The notes under the pieces are model-generated. The model was given only the letters and a program-made list of their open reading frames with translations. It was not told where the DNA came from and made no database searches. The position numbers were made by a program, and so were the translations under genes. From Eledone cirrhosa (taxonomy: Eukaryota): a stretch of DNA of 64,000 nucleotides. Positions 13,218-57,464 of the stretch are shown in pieces; the first letter of the stretch is position 1; each line of letters starts with the position of its first letter. The stretch spans positions 41,168,001 to 41,232,000 of the forward strand of contig OZ024746.1 of assembly GCA_964016885.1 (NCBI GenBank), read 5' to 3'.

Positions 13218-15312
13218 CGAGGCAGTGTGTCAGAGATAGTTGTGATGTCATTGGAGAGAAGTGTATCCGGAATGATAAAGGTGAGCTTGCCCTCACAAGT
13301 GCTGAGAAGAAAGATGCATGGAAGAGTCATTATGATAGATTACTAAATGAGGAGAATTCATGGGAAGAAGAGACCCTACCCAAAGTAGACCCTATAGAGG
13401 GGCCAGCAGTACAAGTCAGCAGCAGCGTAGTAAGTAAGGCAAAGATATGAAGATGGGGAAAGCAACCGGTCCATCGGGTATAGCTGCCGAGATGCTGAAG
13501 GTATCTGGGTCTGTAGGTCACACTATAACCACACGTATTGTTAACCAGGTAATACTAGAAGGTGTCATACCAAAAGATTGGTGCAGTAGCATCATTGTCA
13601 ACTGCTACAAAGGTAAAGGCGATGCACTAGATATAGGAAACTATAGAGGTATAAAGTTGATGGACCAGGTCATGAAAATAACAGAAAGAGTTATAGCACA
13701 GTTGATTAGGGACCGGGTGAAAATAGACGAGATGCAATTTGGGTTTGTACCAGGAAGAGGCACCACTGATGCCCTCTTCCTTGTGAGGCAATTACAGGAA
13801 AAGTACCACTCTACTTGGCATTTGTTGACCTTAAGAAAGCCTTTGACAGAGTTCCACGTGCTGTAATCTAGTGGGCTCTTAGAAAACTAGGAGTAGATGA
13901 ATGGCTTGTGAAAGCGGTACAAGCCATGTATAGGGGAGCAGTCAGCAAAGTTAGGATTAGCAATGAGTATAGCGAGGAATTTAGCGTACAGGTTGGGGTC
14001 CACCAGGGCTCTGTTCTTAGCCCCCTCCTGTTCATCATAGTCCTGCAGGCAATAACGGAGGAGTTTAAGACCGGATGCCCATGGGAACTCCTGTATGCTG
14101 ATGACCTCACACTTATAGCTGAATCTATGGTAGAACTAGAGAATAAATTCCAAACTTGGAAGCAGGGACTAGAAAGAAAGGGTCTCAAAGTCAACATGAC
14201 AAAGACTAAGGTCCTTGTAAGTAGACGAGAAAACAGAACCCAGATCCCCTCAGGGAAATGGCCTTGCTCAGTATGTAGGAAAGGTGTAGGTAGGAACTCC
14301 ATTCTCTGCCCCAAATGCAAACAATGGGTACACAAGAGATGTAGCGGGATCTCAGGAAGCTTAATTAAGAATGTAGGCTTCACATGCAGCAGCTGTGCTG
14401 AGACAGCAAGCAGCAAACAGCCACAGGAAACAAGTACCACCAATCTCTGGGAGGGCTCTGTAGAAACAGTAGACAGCTTCTGCTACCTAGGTGACCGAAT
14501 TAGCAGCGGAGGTGGGTGTTCAGAAAGTACAATAACTAGGGTAAGAACGGGATGGAAGAAGTTTAGGGAACTACTACCACTGCTAGCTGCAAAAGGCTTC
14601 TCCCTCAGAATGAAAGGCAGACTGTATGATGCGTGTATCCGAACAGCAATGTTGCATGGTAGTAAGACCTGGGCGCTGAAGGTGGAAGACTTACGTAGAT
14701 TAGAGAGAAACGAAGCCTGCATGCTCCGATGGATGTGTAACAGTAATATACGTGAACGACAAAGCATAAATGAATTGTGAGAGAGACTGAGCATAAGAGG
14801 AGTCAAATGCTGTGTGCAGGAGAGGCGGTTGCGCTGGTATGGACATGTGATGCGTATGAAGGATGACAGCTGCATAAAAAGGTGCAGAGCACTAGAAGTT
14901 GATGGAAACCGCGGAGTGGGGAGACCCAAGATGACCTGGGATGAGGTGATAAAAGCCGACCTTACCCAATTACACCTCTCAAAGGCAATGACACACGACC
15001 GTGACTTCTGGCGTCACGCAGTAATACAGAGTACCCGACCTCCCATGGGTACAAGCTGAAGCATATAGACAATATGCCCCCCACCCCCCACTGCAAGATG
15101 GTCGTGGAGGTGCCACGGCAAAAAAGCACCCAGCCCACACTGTAAAGTGGACGTGTAGGCACCACGGAAAAGCACCCAGCACTCACTGTAAATGAGGTTG
15201 GTGTTAGGAAGGGCATCCAGCTGACCAGACACTGCCCACAACAGGACAACCCGTCTAACCCATGCTAGCGTGGAAGAACGGACGTAAAACGGTGATGATG
15301 ATGATGATGATG
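13218..15312 (+). mobile_element. 5'-truncated RTE LINE (RT domain plus Cys-rich insert), frameshifted
   Basis: KATGPSGI, QFGFVPGRGTTDA, GVHQGSVLSPLLF, LYADD, CSVC...CPKCKQWVHKRC and RRLRWYGHVMR, then a (GAT)n tail. Confidence 0.95.
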
Positions 15313-37741: not shown

Positions 37742-38153
37742 AAACCGATTATTATATTCTTTGATTTGTAAATATAAATAAATGATTTGATATCTAAATT
37801 CTATATTATTCTATTTGTTTGAAATGTTGTAATACATGTTTATGTTATTCTTGATACTCAGGTTTTTAACCTAATATTTAATTAAAAGTATAATTATGCA
37901 TGAGTATATACACACAAATATATATATCTATATATTGTGTGTATATATATAAAAAATATATATAATATTTTTATTTATATTGTTACTTTTTATCATTAGT
38001 CACATTTTAGAACAATTTGGTATTTGCGACATTTCCTGGACTTTTGCTCTATGTTTTGTTTTTCGTCGATTATTTGACGTGTTTTCATTCTTCGGTGTTG
38101 AATATCAAATCAAGCAAATTGCATTATTCCAAGTGTGTCAATATAGTGCTCAT

Positions 38154-38467
38154 TGTTGGTATGGTGTGGTGTGTAGTGGCCGGAGGCTGGGCGTGCTTGA
38201 CCGGAAGCAGATGTGACGTCAGCTTGAGAGGCCCCTTTCTCTTCTACGGTGGTCATCGGACTGATACAGACGTGCGATTTGAGGCTGCGATCGGCGAGCT
38301 GGATTGTACACACGTGGAAGAGAGGAAAACCAGCCAACGACTTTGCCAGGATCAGAGAAATGCGGTAAGTGAAGTGGCTTTCTAATCACAAGCTATTTCG
38401 GCACTTAAAGACTTATAGAAAAAAAAAAGGAAGAATTTTTTTTTTAAGACAAAGCCACTGGAAAACA
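38154..38467 (+). mobile_element. Truncated LTR element: LTR (38154-38390), PBS and ~65-bp leader
   Basis: TGTTGGTATGGTGTGG...TTTCTAATCACA is followed by AGCTATTTCGGCACT. Homologous to the 5' end of the 39845-43988 element. Confidence 0.85.
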
Positions 38468-40105
38468 TGTCAATATAGTGCTCATTAACAATGCTGCCTA
38501 AAAAAATTTACAAAACTGGAGCAGCAAAGAGGAGAGAAGCTAGACAAGCTGCCACGGAAGAATCTGCAAATAAATGTCATCTAATCACAAGTTTTCTGAA
38601 AAGTCAACAAGTAGTGACGCATCCCAAAGCAACGTAACTGCCGGAATTTCCGGCGAGTCGGTCTGGTCAGATGAACTGGAGAAACAGAAAACCACTGGAG
38701 AGTCACGAGAACCTGACGTCGAAGATGCCTCAGGTCCATCGACTATCTCAACAACCGTCGTAGTCACTGAAGATATAGTTCCAACTGGGGATCCAAACTC
38801 AATAGAGGGAAAAATGGCTGTATCGGAATCTGAAAATGAAAATGATTCAGAGGATGCATGTTGAATTTACAAGAGAAGTATCCAAGCGACCCGAAACATT
38901 TCGAGAACAGACCATTGATGACACCTCTAATTCGCGCCCTCAAGGCCGTTGGTCCTTGTCAGCCAGGATTGAAAGATAATTTTGCTGATTTCCCTCTCGA
39001 CTCGAACCACAGAAAATTCAACATCAGTTGGTACAAGAGAAAGTGTGCTGGAATCCATAAAGTTGACCGACACTGGTTAGTATACTCTCCTGAATCCAAC
39101 AGACTATATTGCTTTTGTTGTTGGCTGTTTGCTGATAAAAATGCCGAATCTTACTCGAAGACTTGGGGTAATCCAGAGTGTGGGATGGCAAACTTCACAA
39201 AGGGAATCGAAAAAATTGCCAAGCATGAGAAAAGTGCCATTCACATCAATGCACAAAAGTGACAAAATATCGTTTGGACGCAGATAAAACAGTGATCGAT
39301 AACCTCATCCATGAAGAGAAGAGAATTGAACGAAATCGCCAGATATTGAGGCGATTGCTTGATTGTACGTTATTTCTCGCAAAACAAGGCCTGGCCTTCA
39401 GAGGTCACAGGGAATATGCTGGACTTGGCGCCAAATCAGAAATTGAAGGAAACTTGATTGAATTGTTGAAATTGATGGCCAAGTATGATACGATCTTGGA
39501 AAGCCATTTATTCTCGCCCAGGCGCACTAAAAGACAGCCTATGTCCAAAATTACAAAACGGATTCATAGAATGCCTGGCAAACGAATGTACTCACCAAAT
39601 AATCACGGAAGTGAAAGCGGCAAAATACTATTCAGTCATCGTCGATTCCACAATAGACATTTCGCATCAGGATCAATGCTCTGTGTCACTGCGATATGTA
39701 TCGAAAAGTAGCCACGCTCAGGAGCATTTCCTGTCGTTTTGTGAACTAGAATCAGCAGCCACTGAATTATTTTACGATACGCTTGTGAAAGTTCTTTTCC
39801 AGTATCTATCCTTGGACGCTCAATATATTAGGGGACAAGCTTACTGTGGTTAGAAAAAGCTATCTCACTTACTGCTTTTCATAGGCGCCGCTAAATTCCA
39901 CTGCTGGTCTCTCCTCTTTCACGTGCGTCCAACTGCTTAACACCGGGAGCTGCCAAAACTGGCGTCCACACCGTTGCTGGTCACCACGAGAGAGGGCCAT
40001 CTGCTGGCCCTTCTGGTCGAGCATGCTTCCGGCCAAGCACCCTTCCGGTCGAGCACTCCCCCGCTTCCAGCCACCGCACGCCACACCATACCCCCCCCCC
40101 TGATC

Positions 40106-42916
40106 TCAAGGATCAATTTCCCCCTCGTCCTTCTGCATATGAAAGTTTGCTGTCCAGGTTGGTGGTTTACGACTTCTTTGCGATCTCCGCAGTGTTGGGA
40201 CAGGACTTTGGGTTTCCTCTTCCTCGGAGTCCGTTGACACAGTGATTCTACGGACATCCAGGACATGACGTGGTACTCCGTCCACGGACACATTGTTCTG
40301 GGAATTTACGGCCGTCACCGTTCCCCTTCCCCATTGAGATGTGCAACGTGCATCTGGGGGCTTAACCCAGACTTCTTCGCCCACCTGCACGAATGCACTC
40401 TCTCTCCCTACTGGCCGTTGTGGTGGCGTGCACGGGTGCCGCCACTCGTATCTGAATACTGCTCTGTGTGGCACCGATTCCTCGACCTGTCCCACCCGAG
40501 GGGACATGTTGTACCAGAACACTGCCTCCATTGGTGAGATATGGCCCCGCTCCGCCATTGCCTTGATCGTCCGGTGGTGTCGCTCCACAATTCCATTCCC
40601 GCTCGGCCTGTACGCTGCTCTGAACAAACGGTCCACCTTCCACCCATCGAGCATCTCCCTCGGCGCCTCCGAGCGGAACGCTGCGCTGTTGTCCATCAGC
40701 AGTTCGTCCACAGGGCCCCGCTCCAAGAACACCTCTCTCAACGTCCGCATGATTTCCTCGGCCGTTCCAGTTTTCATCTCCCTCCATATCGCCATCCGTC
40801 CTGGTCCACAGTCGACCATCGAGAGGTACGTTCCCTGTCGGTAGTGCGTTACATCCACCGCCAATCGCTTCCAGTCGCGATCCACCGGGAGGTTTCCCGT
40901 TTCGTGTACACCCGGGGCGGGATCAATGGACTGACATCGGACGCAGCCTCTAACCACCCTTTGAACACTGTCTGTTAACGTCCGAGTCGATTCTCCTGGC
41001 TAGGAACAGGCTCCTATCCACTCCCATGTGGTGCATGTCATGCAACCCTTTCAGATCCGACTCGGTCAGCCGACACACGGCAGCTATCTCCGGCGCTTCC
41101 ATCCAGGCTTTCTTCACCCTAGTTAAGATGTCCGCCCTATTTTTCTCTGAGGGCACGAAAACTACGCCCAGCCTCAGGTCGAACTCGGTGGCCAGCTCTC
41201 CTAAAGTTCCCAGGCGGCGCTTTATCAGCATCTCCGCCGCCCCTCTCGTTCGCACTCTCTTCTCACTGGTGAGCACTGATCTCACCCATCCGAGTACAGT
41301 AGCCGAGTCGGTGCGTATCTCGATGGTGCGCAGTCCCCACCTCAGGGCGAGGTTCACCCCTCTCAACACTGCGTCCAGTTCGGCCACATTGATGTGGTTG
41401 CAGTCGTCCTTCTTCCTAAGCTAGGCAGCATCCTCGACCTCAACACCTCCTATCTCCAACGTGACACCCAGCGCTATGCTGCTGGCATCGCACCATACGG
41501 TTCCACTCTGTGATTTGGGAACATACCAGCGTCCCCGCACTGGGTCGTCGGCCTTCACCCTCCCGACGATCTCCTGCATCATGGCCATCGTCCTCTCTCC
41601 CACTCTGTCACTCCTCCCGCTCCTCTCTTGACATAGCTGCATGCCGTCCGGAGCCACCCAGCAATCGGGTAGTGACCCACCAACTTTCCACACACCGAGA
41701 AAAGCTCCCGCCTACTCATACTTGGGCCCAATTCTGGAACTTCATTTCCCCTCTGGAATACCAAGACGCCCGTCCTGTCTCGCCGTAGCCTAAGTCCCAG
41801 CGCGGCTCCTCCCTCCAACGCTTCTGACGGCTTCGCAGCCAGTCCATACCCCTGTAAATGGCTCGTGACCTTCGCCGCCGACACCACAGACTCGTCCACT
41901 AGGATGTCGTCAATATAGGAGTTAGTGGCCCTCTTCATCTTGTCGGCCTTTCCCAGAATGGTCTTGAGGACCGCCGCCATGATCTTCGGTGTGGAGCTCA
42001 GCCCGAAACCGAGCCTGGTCAGGCAATATGTCCGGCCCTTATACCTGACCAGCTGATACTGCCAGAGCTTCTCATCTATATGCAATTGCAAGTATGCCGA
42101 CTTTAGATCTACGATTGCTGAACCCCCCGTCATGCGTCTCCACTCACGCAGGGTTTCCCCACAGACATCCGTGACCTCGCTACCCGTGTGGCATGTCACG
42201 TGCCCGTTCATCTCCCGAAAGTCCAGCACCGGCCTCACCTTGTTCTTCGTGGGTTGCGCCACCGCCATTAACGGCAATACTCCGCACTTCACCTCCTCTT
42301 TCCAGGGAAGCAGTATGCCCTCTTCAATCCATCTCTCTACCTCTCGCTCCTAATGTTTCCCTTCAATGTGTGTTGATAGCAGCCCACTTTGGTCTTCAGT
42401 GTTGGTGGTTCTCCCTTCCAGTACCACTCAACAACTCATCGCTGCCCATCGAACACGGCCTTGAAGTCTTTGTCTTGCACAGTGTAAGCGGGGTATTTCT
42501 CCTCGTGGGCCTTCTGGTTCTCCTATCGCGCATACCGATGCAGCGGCGCCAAACGACACACCGACGTTGTTCACTGTGACGCCTCCTAGACGGCCAATTG
42601 CGTCCATGCCCATAACCACGCTGATCCCATCCACCACGCTGTCTACTACGATGGCAGAAAGCCTTATTTTCCTTCCCCGTACCGCTATTTCCATCTCGCT
42701 GCGACCTCGGCATTCAATTTTCCTGCCGTCGACTGCCCTTACGTTGCTCTTCCCTCTCCACCTCTGCGCCACCCCCGCGGTCACCAGTGTCGTCGTACAG
42801 CCCGTGTCCACGAGGGCTCGCTGTGGCTTTCCCCTCACGAAGACTTCCACCACGGGCAGCACCTCTACTCGTAAGGGGCAACTACCGGCGCAGTAGTTCC
42901 CCTTTGATCGTTTCCC
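40106..42916 (-). pseudogene. pol: pol (protease, RT, RNase H, integrase), disrupted by stops and frameshifts
   Basis: PR: ALVDTG. RT: VRPVLDFR, VDLKSAYLQL, RLGFGL, SYIDDILV. RH: WCDAS, HINVAELDA, RTDS, NRADILTR. IN: HDMHHMG...CVRC, AVDVTH, LMDNS, NGIVERHHR. Confidence 0.93.
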
Positions 42917-43625
42917 TGGTCGCAATTAATAGCGATGTGGTCTGGTCGCTTACACCGGTAGCATATTATTTCTGGCCTTGACTCTCTGCAGTCTCTAGCC
43001 ATGTGCGGGCCCTGGCACCGAAAAAGCGACCTCTAAACGTTCGCGGGCGACCGCGTGCCGTGGTTGCCCCCCTTTCACCATTTCGCTGCCAGCTGTCTTG
43101 AGCCTCTGTAGTTGCTATCGCCGCAACACTCTTTTTGGCATCTTCTGCTATGATCCGGGCTTGTTCCACCAGTGAACGCATTTCCATTTCTTTGTAACCC
43201 GGCACTTGCTGCAGTTTCACCGCTATGTCGTCTGGAAATCCATTTATGAACGCCAACCGCACCGTGCGTTCGCATTCCACCTGATATCCAGCCAACAGAG
43301 CCAATCGCCGTATTTCCGCTGCGAAAATGTCAACTCGTTCACCGTTCCATCTAATTCTTGCCAGCTTAGCGAAAGCGGCTAACGGTCCCTCTGCGAATGC
43401 TTCTATCATGCGCCTCTCAATCTTTTGCGCATCTCTTTGGCTGTGTTCGTCCAACTCAAGGAAGAGTACCAACGCGTCCCCCTCGAGGTACAGTGCCATG
43501 AGGCCAGCCACATCTTCTAACTTCTGCAAGCTTGCGACCAGCCGGACTTTTCGCAGCCAAGCGACAACATCACCTTCCCCGGTAAATGCCCTGATAGCTT
43601 CGCTTGTTCGTAGTCTTGTCGCCAT
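42866..43625 (-). CDS. gag: gag (~250 aa; a 1-nt frameshift near 43025 precedes two zinc knuckles)
   Basis: MATRLRTSEAIRAFTGEGDVVAWL... After the slip it reads (C)FRCQGPHMARDC...CYRCKRPDHIAINC, ending at TAG. Confidence 0.88.
42910..42916 (-). promoter_or_regulatory. -1 ribosomal frameshift slippery site G GGA AAC (gag to pol)
   Basis: An XXXYYYZ heptamer just after the second knuckle. The -1 frame runs on into the protease. Confidence 0.75.
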
Positions 43626-43724
43626 CTTCTAATTTGTCTTGCGGTACGTGATAAAAAAAAACAACAGGCTCCTCTCTGTTTTTCCAGTAGCTTTTTTTTT
43701 TTCAATCAGATCTCAGTTTCCAGT

Positions 43725-43736
43725 GCCGAAATAGCT
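43725..43736 (-). promoter_or_regulatory. Non-canonical primer-binding site complementary to tRNA-Phe nt 1-12
   Basis: The plus strand reads GCCGAAATAGCT directly abutting the LTR. The same motif follows the LTR at 38391-38402. Confidence 0.75.
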
Positions 43737-45618
43737 TGTGGTTAGAAAAAGCTATCTCACTTACCGCTTTTCATAGGCGCCGCTAAATTCCACTGCTAGT
43801 CTCTCCCCTTCCACGTGCGTCCAACTGCTTAACACCGGGAGCTGCCAAAACTGGCGTCCACACCGTTGCTGGTCACCACTAGAGAGGACCATCTGCTGGC
43901 CCTTCCGGTCGAGCATCCTTCTGGCCAAGCACCCTTCCGGTCGAGCACTCCCCCGCTTCCGGCCACCGCACGCCACACCATACCCACACTTACGATGGAG
44001 CGTCGAATATGTCCGGCCATATTTCTGGGCTTCAGGCTAAAGTTAAAGAGGGATGCTCTTCGAAAGCTGTTTACGTCCATTGTTGCGCTCATAACCTGAA
44101 CCTGGTGTTAATCGATGCTAGCCAATCGTCAGTGGATGGTAAATTATTTTTTGGTATATTGGAGAGCCTGTATGTTTTCTTAACATCAAGCTTGCCAAGG
44201 CTGAAAATCCTCGAAGAAGAACAAGAAAAACTATTGACTTCAACGGTATTAACATTAAAAAGACTCTCAGATACGCGCTGGTTTAGTAACATTCAGGCTG
44301 TAGAGGCTACCATTAACAACTTACCGGCAGTAATAAGTGCACTAGAGAGGATAATAAGTGTGTAGTGGGGATGTTCACGACACTGCTCTGAAAATATTAG
44401 CCGAGGCCAGAGGTTTGCTACTAAATGTGAGCAAGTTTGAATTCATTTTCATGTTGAAGTTTTTTCAGAATTTACTTAAAAAGCTGCATTCTGTTTCACA
44501 ATATTTGCAGAAGGAGGCTATCGACTTATATTCTGCGGACGTCATGATTAAAAATGTAGTAAAAGAAATTGAAGACATCCGCTCAAATGAATATTTTGAC
44601 CGAACATTATCAGACGCTAAAAATCTCGCCGAGCAATGTCATGTTGAACCAGAGTTTACAACGGAAAAGAAAAAAAAAGCGTTTTCATGACGAAATTGCC
44701 AGTGACGAACCTCACGAGACGATGAGTCAGCATTTTAAACGGGACGTTTATTTCACTATCTTAGATAGAATCATTAGTAGCTTTAACGAACGTTTTGCCG
44801 ACTTGCACGATCTAGTGAAGGATTTTTCGTGCTTGATACCGGCGCACTTCGACGACGGCACATGCAATAGAGAGAGAATCGATAATCTTGTGAAATTCTA
44901 CGAGGGTGACATCGAAAATGACACTATCTTCGACGAGTATTTATCATTCAAAGATGTTTACAAGGAAGTGTGTTTAGATAAATCCATATCGAGTTCTGAG
45001 ATCGTTCCGTTTATGATTTCTAATGACTTAGATAGAGCCTATCCGAACGTGTTTGCCTTATACAAAATGTTCATAACTATTCCGGTTAGCTCGGCGCAGG
45101 CTGAGCGAACCTTCATCAGGCTCAAACTGGTAAAGAATTATTTGCGTAGTACCATGAGTGAAGAGCGGTTGAATGCTTTGGCAATGATGTACATAGAGCG
45201 AGAACTGGCTGAAAAAATTGACTTCAGCATCGTGATTGAAAAATGTTCTAAAGTAAAACATCGCAAATTAGAACTGTAGAACAAGTGATGTGCTCGAATG
45301 TGAAAGTAAAGTTTTAGATGGACGATTTGTTGTACATACGAATTTGTGTTGGTGAATAATCGATTGCAAAACTAGTTTTATTGGATGTTTTTTTTTTTCT
45401 GAAGATAGACCATCGTCTTCGCAGTTAATAAAGTTTTCACGGAACATGCTAACTCTGTAATCTATGATGCTGTCTACTCTATTATAAATTATTATCTATT
45501 CTATATGCGTGTATGAACATATTTCCTTGCAGCCGATGGAAATGAGCGTATGGAATTGGTGGGCCCCCTTTAGATCGAATTTGCACCCCCCTGGCTTTAA
45601 AAGATAGTTACGCCACTG

Positions 45619-54310: not shown

Positions 54311-54599
54311 ATATATATGTGTGTATATCTCTGTATATATGTGTGTGTATGTGTGTGTGTGTGTGTATATGTGTATATATGTGTATATATGTGTGTGTGT
54401 ATGGAGGGAATGTTAAGGTACACTTAATACAAGTAATCCAAGGAAGATGGCTGCAACACTGATTTTGTTGACTCTCTGCTTGAAATGGTTGAGATGAAAG
54501 GAAAATGGGAGATGCTGATAAATAGAGTTAGTTGTAATGGATGGCATAACACAGTGCTAATGTTGCCATGATAGAACTTGTTTGATCACAAACATATAC

Positions 54600-57031
54600 C
54601 AGTTGCAATTTGTTGCTGCTGCTGCTGTTGTTGTTGTTGTTCTTGTCGGTGTTGCTGCTGCTGTGGTTGGTGCTGCTGTTGTTGGTGCTGCTGTTGTTAG
54701 TGTTGCTGTTGTTGGTACTGCTGCTGCTGTTGTTGGTGCTGCTGTTGTTGGTATTGCTGCTGCTGTGGTTGGTGCTGCTGTTGTTAGTGTTGCTGTTGTT
54801 GGTACTGCTGCTGCTGTGGTTGGTGCTGCTGTTGTTGGTGCTGCTGTTGTTAGTGTTGCTGTTGTTGGTACTGCTGCTGCTGTTGTTGGTGCTGCTGTTG
54901 TTAGTGTTGCTGTTGTTGGTACTGCTGCTGCTGTGGTTGGTGCTGCTGTTGTTGGTGCTGCTGTTGTTAGTGTTGCTGTTGTTGGTACTGCTGCTGCTGT
55001 TGTTGGTGCTGCTGTTGTTAGTGTTGCTGTTGTTGGTACTGCTGCTGCTGTTGTTGGTACTGCTGCTGCTGTTGTTGGTACTGCTGCTGCTGTTGTTGGT
55101 GCTGCTGTTGTTAGTGTTGCTGTTGGTGGTACTGCTGCTGCTGTTGTTGCTGCTGTTGTTGTTGGTGTTGCTGTTGTTGGTACTGCTGCTGCTGTTGTTG
55201 GTGCTGCTGTTGTTAGTGTTGCTGTTGTTGGTACTGCTGCTGCTGTTGTTGGTACTGCTGCTGCTGTTGTTGGTGCTGCTGTTGTTAGTGTTGCTGTTGT
55301 TGGTACTGCTGCTGCTGTTGTTGGTGCTGCTGTTGTTAGTGTTGCTGTTGTTGGTACTGCTGCTGCTGTTGTTGGTACTGCTGCTGCTGTTGTTGGTGCT
55401 GCTGTTGTTAGTGTTGCTGTTGTTGGTACTGCTGCTGCTGTTGTTGGTACTGCTGCTGCTGTTGTTGGTGCTGCTGTTGTTAGTGTTGCTGTTGTTGGTA
55501 CTGCTGCTGCTGTTGTTGGTGCTGCTGTTGTTAGTGTTGCTGTTGTTGGTACTGCTGCTGCTGTTGTTGGTGCTGCTGTTGTTAGTGTTGCTGTTGTTGG
55601 TACTGCTGCTGCTGTTGTTGGTACTGCTGCTGCTGTTGTTGGTGCTGCTGTTGTTAGTGTTGCTGTTGTTGGTACTGCTGCTGCTGTTGTTGGTACTGCT
55701 GCTGCTGTTGTTGGTGCTGCTGTTGTTAGTGTTGCTGTTGTTGGTACTACTGCTGCTGTTGTTGCTGCTGCTGCTGTTGTTGGTGCTGCTGTTGTTAGTG
55801 TTGCTGTTGTTGGTACTGCTGCTGCTGTGGTTGGTGCTGCTGTTGTTGGTGCTGCTGTTGTTAGTGTTGCTGTTGTTGGTACTGCTGCTGCTGTTGTTGG
55901 CACTGCTGCTGCTGTTGTTGGTGCTGCTGTTGTTAGTGTTGCTGTTGTTGGTACTGCTGCTGCTGTTGTTGGTGCTGCTGTTGTTAGTGTTGCTGTTGTT
56001 GGTATTGCTGCTGCTGTGGTTGGTGCTGCTGTTGTTAGTGTTGCTGTTGTTGGTACTGCTGCTGCTGTTGTTGGTACTGCTGCTGCTGTTGTTGGTGCTG
56101 CTGTTGTTAGTGTTGCTGTTGTTGGTACTACTGCTGCTGTTGTTGCTGCTGCTGCTGTTGTTGGTGCTGCTGTTGTTAGTGTTGCTGTTGTTGGTACTGC
56201 TGCTGCTGTTGTTGGTGCTGCTGTTGTTGGTGCTGCTGTTGTTAGTGTTGCTGTTGTTGGTACTGCTGCTGCTGTTGTTGGTGCTGCTGTTGTTGGTGCT
56301 GCTGTTGTTGGTACTGCTGCTGCTGTTGTTGGTACTGCTGCTGCTGTTGTTGGTGCTGCTGTTGTTAGTGTTGCTGTTGTTGGTACTACTGCTGCTGTTG
56401 TTGCTGCTGCTGCTGTTGTTGGTGCTGCTGTTGTTGGTGCTGCTGTTGTTAGTGTTGCTGTTGTTGGTACTGCTGCTGCTGTTGTTGGTGCTGCTGTTGT
56501 TAGTGTTGCTGTTGTTGGTACTGCTGCTGCTGTGGTTGGTGCTGCTGTTGTTAGTGTTGCTGTTGTTGGTACTGCTGCTGCTGTTGTTGGTGCTGCTGTT
56601 GTTGGTGCTGCTGTTGTTAGTGTTGCTGTTGGTGGTACTGCTGCTGCTGTTGTTGCTGCTGTTGTTGTTGGTGTTGCTGTTGTTGGTACTGCTGCTGCTG
56701 TTGTTGGTACTGCTGCTGCTGTTGTTGGTACTGCTGCTGCTGTTGTTGCTGCTGTTGTTGTTGGTGTTGCTGTTGTTGGTACTGCTGCTGCTGTTGTTGG
56801 TACTGCTGCTGCTGTTGTTGGTGCTGCTGTTGTTAGTGTTGCTGTTGTTGGTACTGCTGCTGCTGTTGTTGCTGCTGTTGTTGTTGGTGTTGCTGTTGTT
56901 GGTGCTGCTGCTGCTGTTGTTGCTGCTGTTGTTGTTGGTGCTGCTATTGTTGGTGTTGCTGTTGTTGGTGTTGCTGTTGGTGCTGCTGATGATGTTGTTG
57001 GTGGTGGTGGTGGTACTATTTTTGGTACTGC

Positions 57032-57063
<32 letters not shown>

Positions 57064-57304
57064 GTGCCGCTGTTGTTGTTGGTGCTGCTGTTGTTGGTGC
57101 TGTTGTTGTTGGTGCTGTTGCTGTTGTTGTTGGTGCTGCTGATTTTGGTGCTGCTGATTTTGGTGATGAAGTTGCTGTTGTTGTTGTTGGTGCTGTTGCT
57201 GTTGTTGTTGGTGCTGTTGGTGCTGCTGCTGTTGTTGTTGGTGCTGTTGCTGTTGTTTTTCCTATTGCTTTAGCTAGTGTTATTTTTCTTTTATTGATAA
57301 CGAT
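54600..57304 (-). CDS. Mucin-like Thr/Ala/Pro tandem-repeat exon (~900 codons)
   Basis: The frame is stop-free from 57304 to 54560 and encodes repeats of PTTAAAV / PTTATLTTAA / PTTAA. A candidate donor CTG|GTATAT is at 54600, and a polypyrimidine tract lies upstream of 57304. Exact exon ends are uncertain. Confidence 0.7.
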
Positions 57305-57464
57305 TTATAAAAAAACAAAAAACAACAAACAAGCCCCCCCCCCCAAAAAAAATATTGTGTTAAGAAAGAAACAAAAAAAAAAGATGTCTACCATTAATAT
57401 TTCCCACTAACATACTCCCATCTCCATCATCATCATTATCACCACCATTATCACAATCTTCAAT

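Follow-up and report, generated by a model that had tools for sequence, protein, structure and literature searches.

Primer-binding sites complementary to tRNA 5′ ends in a compact, DUF7047-bearing lineage of LTR retrotransposons

Introduction

Reverse transcription of LTR retrotransposons is described as starting from a whole tRNA, from a tRNA half-molecule cut in the anticodon stem or from a self primer, these being the types named in the available text of one source (PMC6317226), and tRNA priming is described in the available part of another as proceeding via the 3′ end or the anticodon loop (PMC10886601). Half-molecule priming has been assigned to copia, Ty5, Osser, Bryco, Bianca and the fungal Helenus elements and, in the same portions of these two sources, is reported for Ty1/copia only (PMC6317226, PMC10886601). 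In Tf1, according to the section of the source at hand, an 11-bp duplex forms at the RNA 5′ end and RNase H cuts between bases 11 and 12 (PMC7175516). The accessible portions of PMC3601003, PMC7472051 and PMC7773854 name no further primer type, and those of PMC9040795, PMC6238403 and PMC8556966 make no mention of primer sites. Among titles and abstract openings, with subscription journals, Repbase, GyDB and supplements lying outside the search, we found no description of priming from a tRNA 5′ end or of elements with the domain DUF7047; such a match may already stand in a Repbase entry or in a PBS table of some supplement.

Here we analyse an LTR element in a 64-kb stretch of the Eledone cirrhosa genome (the window, to which all coordinates refer). 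A first-pass annotation of the sequence had proposed that the primer-binding site (PBS) of this element is complementary to the 5′ end of tRNA-Phe and not to a tRNA 3′ end. Comparison with host tRNA genes, with other copies in the genome and with distant relatives from metagenomes leads us to posit that such sites characterize a whole lineage of elements and follow the 5′ ends of several tRNAs.

Results

Structure and classification of the element

The element occupies 4.14 kb of the minus strand of the window, from its 5′ LTR to the end of the 3′ LTR at 39845 (Table 1). With a typical length of about 4.2 kb, the order gag-PR-RT-RH-IN, TG...CA LTRs, a 5-nt target-site duplication (TSD) and a polypurine tract (PPT) ahead of the 3′ LTR, it is an LTR retrotransposon. 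In this copy pol is fragmented by stops and frameshifts. On the minus strand the PBS 12-mer is directly followed by ACT (43724-43722), and an Rfam search over the element matched nothing. The 5 nt missing where the PPT meets U3 of the 3′ LTR (40091-40100) are absent from one other copy (L432) too, and the start of the 5′ LTR is normal in both. The element and a fragment of a second family apparently sit inside a hAT transposon (38468-45279), with a hAT dimerisation domain at 44563-45279. Elsewhere the window holds a non-LTR RT fragment with a PHD finger (13872-14780) and a long minisatellite with units of 9-15 nt (54500-57400). Contigs from four sequencing runs of one study cover the stretch.

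Table 1. Features of the window element and of the second-family fragment, in window coordinates
Feature	Position	Strand	Remarks
5′ LTR	43737..43988	−	252 nt, TG...CA; ends ...CCACA at 43737
PBS	43725..43736	−	12 nt, AGCTATTTCGGC; exact complement of host tRNA-Phe(GAA) nt 1-12; zero spacer after LTR
U5 stretch able to fold back on PBS	43750..43765	−	10-11 bp hairpin; preceded by splice-donor-like word; main families of this genome only
gag ORF	42966..43625	−	ATG at 43625; no Pfam match; assigned from position and likeness to N-termini of gag-pol homologues
Aspartyl protease part of pol	42428..42925	−	gag-asp_proteas 2.6e-7
Reverse transcriptase (YIDD) and DUF7047	41579..42349	−	RVT_1 5e-4; DUF7047 4e-17
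RNase H region (bounds approximate)	40950..41520	−	RVT_3 1.4e-7 on 40950-41420; one stop inside in this copy
DDE integrase region	40106..40999	−	rve 4.8e-5
Polypurine tract	40091..40112	−	GATCA and G run; this copy lacks 5 nt of the PPT/U3 junction present in most copies
3′ LTR	39845..40093	−	96% identity to 5′ LTR over 249 nt; no PBS behind it
Target-site duplication, 5 nt, upstream copy	43989..43993	−	
Target-site duplication, 5 nt, downstream copy	39840..39844	−	stands behind 3′ LTR where a PBS would be
5′ LTR of second family, same lineage, truncated copy	38154..38390	+	
PBS of second-family copy	38391..38402	+	identical 12-mer
Leader of truncated second-family copy	38403..38467	+	

The protein domains place the element in a lineage that sits awkwardly in existing schemes. 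DUF7047 and rve were found in all 40 members compared, and RT_RNaseH and RT_RNaseH_2 in none at E≤0.01. Against six gypsy copies of the host, all of one clade, the RT part of the pol profile scored 0-4 bits and the integrase part 16-25 bits; the best matches among solved structures are retroviral integrases. None of the Pao-type domains (Peptidase_A17, DUF1758/1759/5641) is among the 16 families matched by the 40 members, and a BEL outgroup search of this genome gave one weak match. The Ty1/copia features (integrase before RT; RVT_2) are absent from the element and from the 40 members, as is any family for the tyrosine recombinase of DIRS/Ngaro, the members carrying rve instead. By its sequence this is a compact DUF7047 lineage, poorly classified, with an RT hardly like that of canonical Ty3/gypsy elements; databases may file its members under Gypsy.

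The PBS and host tRNA-Phe

The 12 nt behind the 5′ LTR are not a chance match. The 12-mer has 853 matches in the genome as against 24 for a control, and when it is preceded by the ACA of the LTR end the figures are 514 and 1. Of the first 30 loci returned by the 12-mer search, 25 lie near proteins of this lineage, one is a tRNA-Phe(GAA) gene and four are unrelated. Among 30 host copies selected by RT, the 12-mer is exact in 24 and carries one mismatch in four, the remaining two having no LTR in range. Of 20 full-length copies, 13 of them with an exact 5-nt TSD, 16 have the 12-mer unchanged behind the 5′ LTR, three have it there with a single mismatch and one has lost it by deletion; none has it behind the 3′ LTR. 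None of these 20 copies has a PBS of the TGG-start kind, nor do any of the 52 sites of relatives described below, whereas canonical gypsy copies of the same genome do have sites of the TGG type, clear by eye in 8 of 16.

The proposed partner is borne out by the host's own genes. One tRNA-Phe(GAA) gene (L021) begins with the exact complement of the 12-mer, and so do 17 of the 20 host tRNA-Phe genes fetched, the other three being one position off; a pattern for the Phe D arm and anticodon has 201 matches in the genome. The genome also holds large tandem arrays of tRNA-Phe and tRNA-Asn genes (L139-L155; G000:C4:117.36-117.57 Mb) and arrays of intron-containing tRNA-Met genes (L436-L462). A better-matching partner, either the element's own LTR or another RNA 3′ end, was looked for as a refutation, and none was found in the LTR or in the 3′ ends of three host tRNAs: these 3′ ends pair with the site at −7 to −8, against −20.5 for the 5′ end of tRNA-Phe. 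Cofolding of unmodified RNA at the level of secondary structure gave −6.3 and −8.7 kcal/mol with host tRNA-Phe, compared with −2.1 and +0.6 for tRNA-Lys and −2.5 and −3.2 for tRNA-Asn, so that net binding is predicted to be favourable to host tRNA-Phe and not to tRNA-Lys or tRNA-Asn.

A second occurrence of the site, on the plus strand of the window, calls for a different reading from the one first given to it. The same 15 nt as in the window element recur at 38391-38405 behind a diverged LTR, and this repeat had been taken as a sign of constraint. The argument holds for 12 of these nucleotides and fails for the full 15, the bases past position 12 being variable; furthermore, the copy at 38391 belongs to a second family, represented eight more times among the 115 sites listed, so that the repeat attests to conservation at the level of families and not to constraint on that copy. 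In place of the 5-nt TSD, this truncated LTR-PBS-leader fragment has an 18-nt direct repeat on either side (38136-38153 and 38468-38485), suggestive of repair or of integration at one end only.

The site in distant relatives

Named homologues of the proteins come from crustaceans, molluscs, Trichuris and the sponge Sycon, the species with DUF7047 elements including Trichuris suis, Sycon ciliatum, Aplysia californica, Oratosquilla oratoria, Petrolisthes manimaculis and Argonauta hians, and the pol profile retrieves 1307 clusters (50% identity, fragments counted in) at E≤1e-30. A protein-based scan led to 75 metagenome loci whose best segments are 30-50% identical apart from two very short matches; 22 were left out, 20 having no gag match and two starting inside gag. 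As the first-pass annotation had anticipated, the site persists in these distant homologues: in 52 of the 53 usable loci, at 32-50% identity, an LTR-like end, which is ACA in 45, is followed by [A/C]GCTA-NNNN-GGC, and the sole miss (L080) begins only 37 nt before gag. The detection pattern fixed five positions (−1 and 2-5), for which a chance match is expected in about 0.19 of loci; at positions 10, 11 and 12, which it did not require, G, G and C stand in 45, 43 and 44 of 47 distinct contexts. Beyond the site conservation falls, the commonest base at +13 being A (25 of 47) and the commonest at +14 reaching 18 of 47. No relative of the element was found in viral contigs. Two loci (L076, L081) show the PBS twice, about 4 kb apart, in repeats that run beyond the LTR end, as in tandem elements or a collapsed assembly. 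A sponge branch that includes Sycon ciliatum (P0217, P0220, P0224, P0231) has proteins of about 1390 aa in which DUF7047 is present and the integrase region is longer.

This boundary bears on what the site copies. It had been suggested that UUUCGGCAC also mimics the 3′ acceptor strand of the tRNA, and this part of the proposal does not survive, given the variation after position 12 (A at +13 in 25 of 47 contexts, C at +14 in 10 of 47). The conserved stretch ends with the base that faces tRNA nt 1. In the case of two tRNAs that contain G-U pairs (L208, L253), the site is the complement of the 5′ strand and not of the 3′ strand; in a third tRNA (L261) the 3′ strand equals one class of site, which leaves that case ambiguous between the two strands. 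Pairing with a pre-tRNA leader was likewise rejected: leaders end in CA and would need TG at +13 and +14, and the bases there do not fit.

The distance from the site to the first ATG downstream is 0-26 nt in the relatives, a proximity that would suit a site that binds the tRNA 5′ end for some other purpose, such as translation from the gag start, packaging or silencing, with a protein or another RNA 3′ end serving as primer. The neighbours of the RT in a language model include hepadnaviral P proteins, a lead only, which would be in keeping with such a role. In this genome, however, the gag start is 100 nt away; the site adjoins the LTR end in every family, no second primer site exists, and the 3′ ends of the three host tRNAs pair poorly with it. 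We therefore give a role other than priming little credence. Nineteen of 44 relatives (L061-L132) have a poly(A) signal within 60 nt of the LTR end, against one of 44 control windows, so the U5 of the relatives is likely very short.

Covariation with tRNA 5′ ends

A site that primes from a tRNA 5′ end may be expected to change with it, and the co-variation that had been proposed for tRNA-Phe proves broader than Phe alone. Forty of the 52 relatives' sites are exact complements of a tRNA 5′ 12-mer that we found, belonging to four tRNA-Phe variants, tRNA-Lys(CUU) and tRNA-Met; the 12 without an exact match to any tRNA found are off by one (5), two (5) or three (2) positions. The mid-site variants TCTA (14 loci), TCGC (11) and TCAC (9) each have an exactly complementary partner in nt 1-12 of tRNA-Phe(GAA) genes of eukaryote type. 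These variant Phe genes (L208, L253-L257, L287, L261, L263, L283) come from viral and MAG contigs, which are not the elements' hosts, and were obtained with patterns aimed at the variants; in a single open search, one of six Phe genes matched a site variant. Two further sites answer to other tRNAs, both with genes from Eledone cirrhosa: that of L102 is the complement of nt 1-12 of tRNA-Lys(CUU), and that of L107 the complement of nt 1-12 of elongator tRNA-Met(CAU). Compared with the Phe site, that of L107 has 5 of 12 positions changed, and each change, that of the base facing nt 12 among them, follows the Met gene.

On an RT tree of 49 rows (8 of 57 having been dropped for short RT) the site changes at least 19 times, as against a shuffled mean of 32, and the loci are not independent, the 14-member TCTA clade counting as about one event. 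Element and tRNA come from one and the same host only in this genome. There, the foreign site variants are rare as sites (14 matches against 48 for the control, one of the 14 an element) and as tRNA genes (1 against 1), and their being missing in both forms is what host tracking predicts. For two TCCG-type sites, which presumably correspond to the start of an animal tRNA-Lys(UUU), the search returned bacterial-type genes only and no host gene with a matching start. Two members of the TCTA clade, L120 (2017-2028) and L127 (467-478), share an identical site that is three changes from any tRNA 5′ end found and may possibly reflect another tRNA switch.

Traces of a primer copied into the site were sought within the host families. 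Substitutions in host sites that might stem from a variant tRNA-Phe copied into the site number 3 C>A, 0 C>G and 18 C>T. Thirty-three of 80 main-family copies carry one additional base (G, A or C) at +13, with six changes on the tree; all lie in one clade and the G forms a CpG, and as a run-off signature the added base is suggestive only. A host-matched comparison of element and tRNA in eight MAGs with eukaryote-type tRNA contigs yielded no more than weak integrase-like matches, in two of them. One bacterial MAG contig carries a tandem array of eukaryote-type tRNA-Phe genes, one per 3.7 kb (L253-L257, L269, L270), likely as contamination.

Pairing with the element's own LTR and a candidate second helix

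Self-priming as in Tf1 would have the element's own U5 arm pair with the site and be cut, making the tRNA match secondary. Within the window and the main families of this genome the U5 arm does pair with the site over 10-11 bp, and 21 of 22 changes at U-facing positions, all of them A/G transitions, retain the pairing. This arm is nonetheless a local feature with a loop of just 11-13 nt, and two other families of this genome are without it. Across the lineage, pairing between site and LTR reached p≤0.05 in 5 of the 46 relatives with enough upstream sequence, in no common register and with approximate LTR limits, and on this count we rejected lineage-wide priming of the Tf1 type. The perfect tRNA duplex is also stronger than the U5-arm hairpin (−18.7 against −11.5), and the site tracks tRNA 5′ ends and not the LTR, all of which makes self-priming the most improbable of the explanations considered here.

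In the main families of this genome the U5 end can alternatively pair with nt 15-25 of tRNA-Phe (p 0.02-0.14 for the commonest U5 variants). As a lineage-wide second helix between U5 and the tRNA D arm this candidate was not recovered, with 2 of 33 relatives at p≤0.05 (Fisher p 0.16); we read the alternative pairing as a putative local regulatory switch. In several divergent families of this genome a word resembling a splice donor, GGTAAG, stands ahead of the U5 arm (43750-43765 in the window, minus strand); in metagenome relatives it occurs in 3 of 44, against 8 of 44 in the control.

Discussion

The analysis strongly supports, at the level of sequence, that tRNA 5′-end sites are real and widespread and would represent a new primer type within tRNA-fragment priming. 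Minus-strand synthesis begins at the LTR end, which fixes where the 3′ end of the primer must be. A mature tRNA whose nt 1-12 are paired with the site offers no 3′-OH at this point, which means that it would have to be cut, arrive pre-cut or be extended as a branch. We consider it highly probable that priming proceeds from a tRNA 5′ end as such. For the more specific proposal, that the primer is cut near nt 12 by the element's own RNase H, much as in Tf1 but in trans, we see the case as evenly balanced.

The proposed sequence of events starts from a site that adjoins the LTR end, matches tRNA nt 1-12 and, in relatives, follows other tRNA 5′ ends. The element RNA would then invade the acceptor stem and the start of the D stem, giving a 12-bp duplex from the tRNA 5′ terminus, and by analogy with Tf1 the RT/RNase H would cut the tRNA where this duplex ends, leaving a 3′-OH at about nt 12. 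That the duplex has the same geometry as Tf1's, where an RNA 5′ end is paired and cut after nt 11, favours the same cut in trans. The Tf1 cut requires additional RNA structure, and here an extra helix between U5 and tRNA was seen in this genome's families only. Plus-strand synthesis would subsequently copy the short primer out to its 5′ end, which would account both for the end of conservation at tRNA nt 1 and for the ability of the site to switch between tRNAs. Finally, by eye the PPT is mostly followed by 2 nt before the TG of the LTR, whereas the U5 side has no spacer; from this asymmetry, primer nt 11-12 would supply the two bases trimmed by integrase, and the primer 3′ end would fall at nt 10-12.

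The same tRNA 5′ piece could also be made by host nucleases, cut at or trimmed to nt 12, and then anneal to the site. The sequence evidence for pairing with tRNA 5′ ends fits such a primer equally well; a free piece needs no melting of the tRNA, and pairing past nt 12, which would call for a longer substrate, is not lineage-wide. Commonly described 5′ tRNA fragments are, however, 14-16 nt long, and the terminal bases of the LTR do not pair with tRNA nt 13-16, so that these fragments would need exact trimming. The constant 12 nt across Phe, Lys and Met further suggests a measuring step tied to the duplex. We accordingly regard a host-made fragment as unlikely, if the most serious of the competing explanations.

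Alternatively, the tRNA may not be cut at all. Retrons make branched primers from a 2′-OH, and an RT that extended from the 2′-OH at nt 12 of the bound tRNA would account for pairing that stops at nt 12; the distance of this RT from canonical gypsy RT, and the U5 pairing with tRNA nt 15-25 in this genome's families, which implies a long tRNA in the complex, would both accord with it. Yet the second helix is not shared across the lineage, the branch would need to come off before a clean LTR end could form, and the parts of the literature examined held no precedent among LTR elements. Branched priming thus strikes us as improbable.

Returning to cleavage by the element's own RNase H, the fullest form of our proposal is an undescribed, animal-wide lineage of compact elements outside canonical gypsy, BEL, copia and DIRS, ranging from sponges to crustaceans, molluscs and nematodes, whose RT/RNase H would clip the first 12 bases off a mature tRNA and so make its own 5′ tRNA fragments as a fourth primer type. 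We advance this combined picture tentatively and with some doubt. If true, LTR elements would have a fourth way to start reverse transcription, beside the whole tRNA 3′ end, the tRNA half and their own RNA, and it would sit between tRNA-half priming and self-priming, with the geometry of Tf1 and a tRNA in trans. The evolutionary relation of tRNA priming to self-priming would become testable with one enzyme and one short RNA. Such sites would also explain why these elements slip past PBS-based annotation and would offer a simple rule for annotating them. More broadly, they would tie 5′ tRNA fragments to transposon replication, beyond silencing alone, and point to an RT/RNase H with unusual handling of RNA duplexes.

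Among described systems, half-molecule priming of the copia/Ty5 kind resembles the present case in a site without a TGG start and in the use of a 3′-truncated host tRNA, implied here by geometry; it differs in that, according to the portions available, those tRNAs are cut and paired at the anticodon stem-loop in Ty1/copia elements, whereas here nt 1-12 are paired in elements of PR-RT-RH-IN order. Tf1, Tf2 and sushi share a short duplex (11 bp, against 12 here) that starts at an RNA 5′ terminus, adjoins the LTR and needs a 3′-OH at its end (PMC7175516, PMC6317226, as far as their available text goes); Tf1, however, uses its own transcript in cis, in contrast to a host tRNA in trans in elements where own-LTR pairing is not general. 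The Ty3/gypsy elements (Metaviridae) have the same gag-PR-RT-RH-IN order, TG...CA LTRs, 5-nt TSD and G-rich PPT, and the present lineage departs from them in its length of about 4.2 kb, in DUF7047 (40 of 40), in the absence of RT_RNaseH and RT_RNaseH_2 matches (0 of 40) and in an RT match to host gypsy copies of 0-4 bits. With standard tRNA 3′-end priming, as in retroviruses, most Ty3/gypsy and BEL/Pao elements, it has in common that a host tRNA sets the end of U5 and that several tRNAs are used across the lineage, the difference being that here the opposite end of the tRNA is read.
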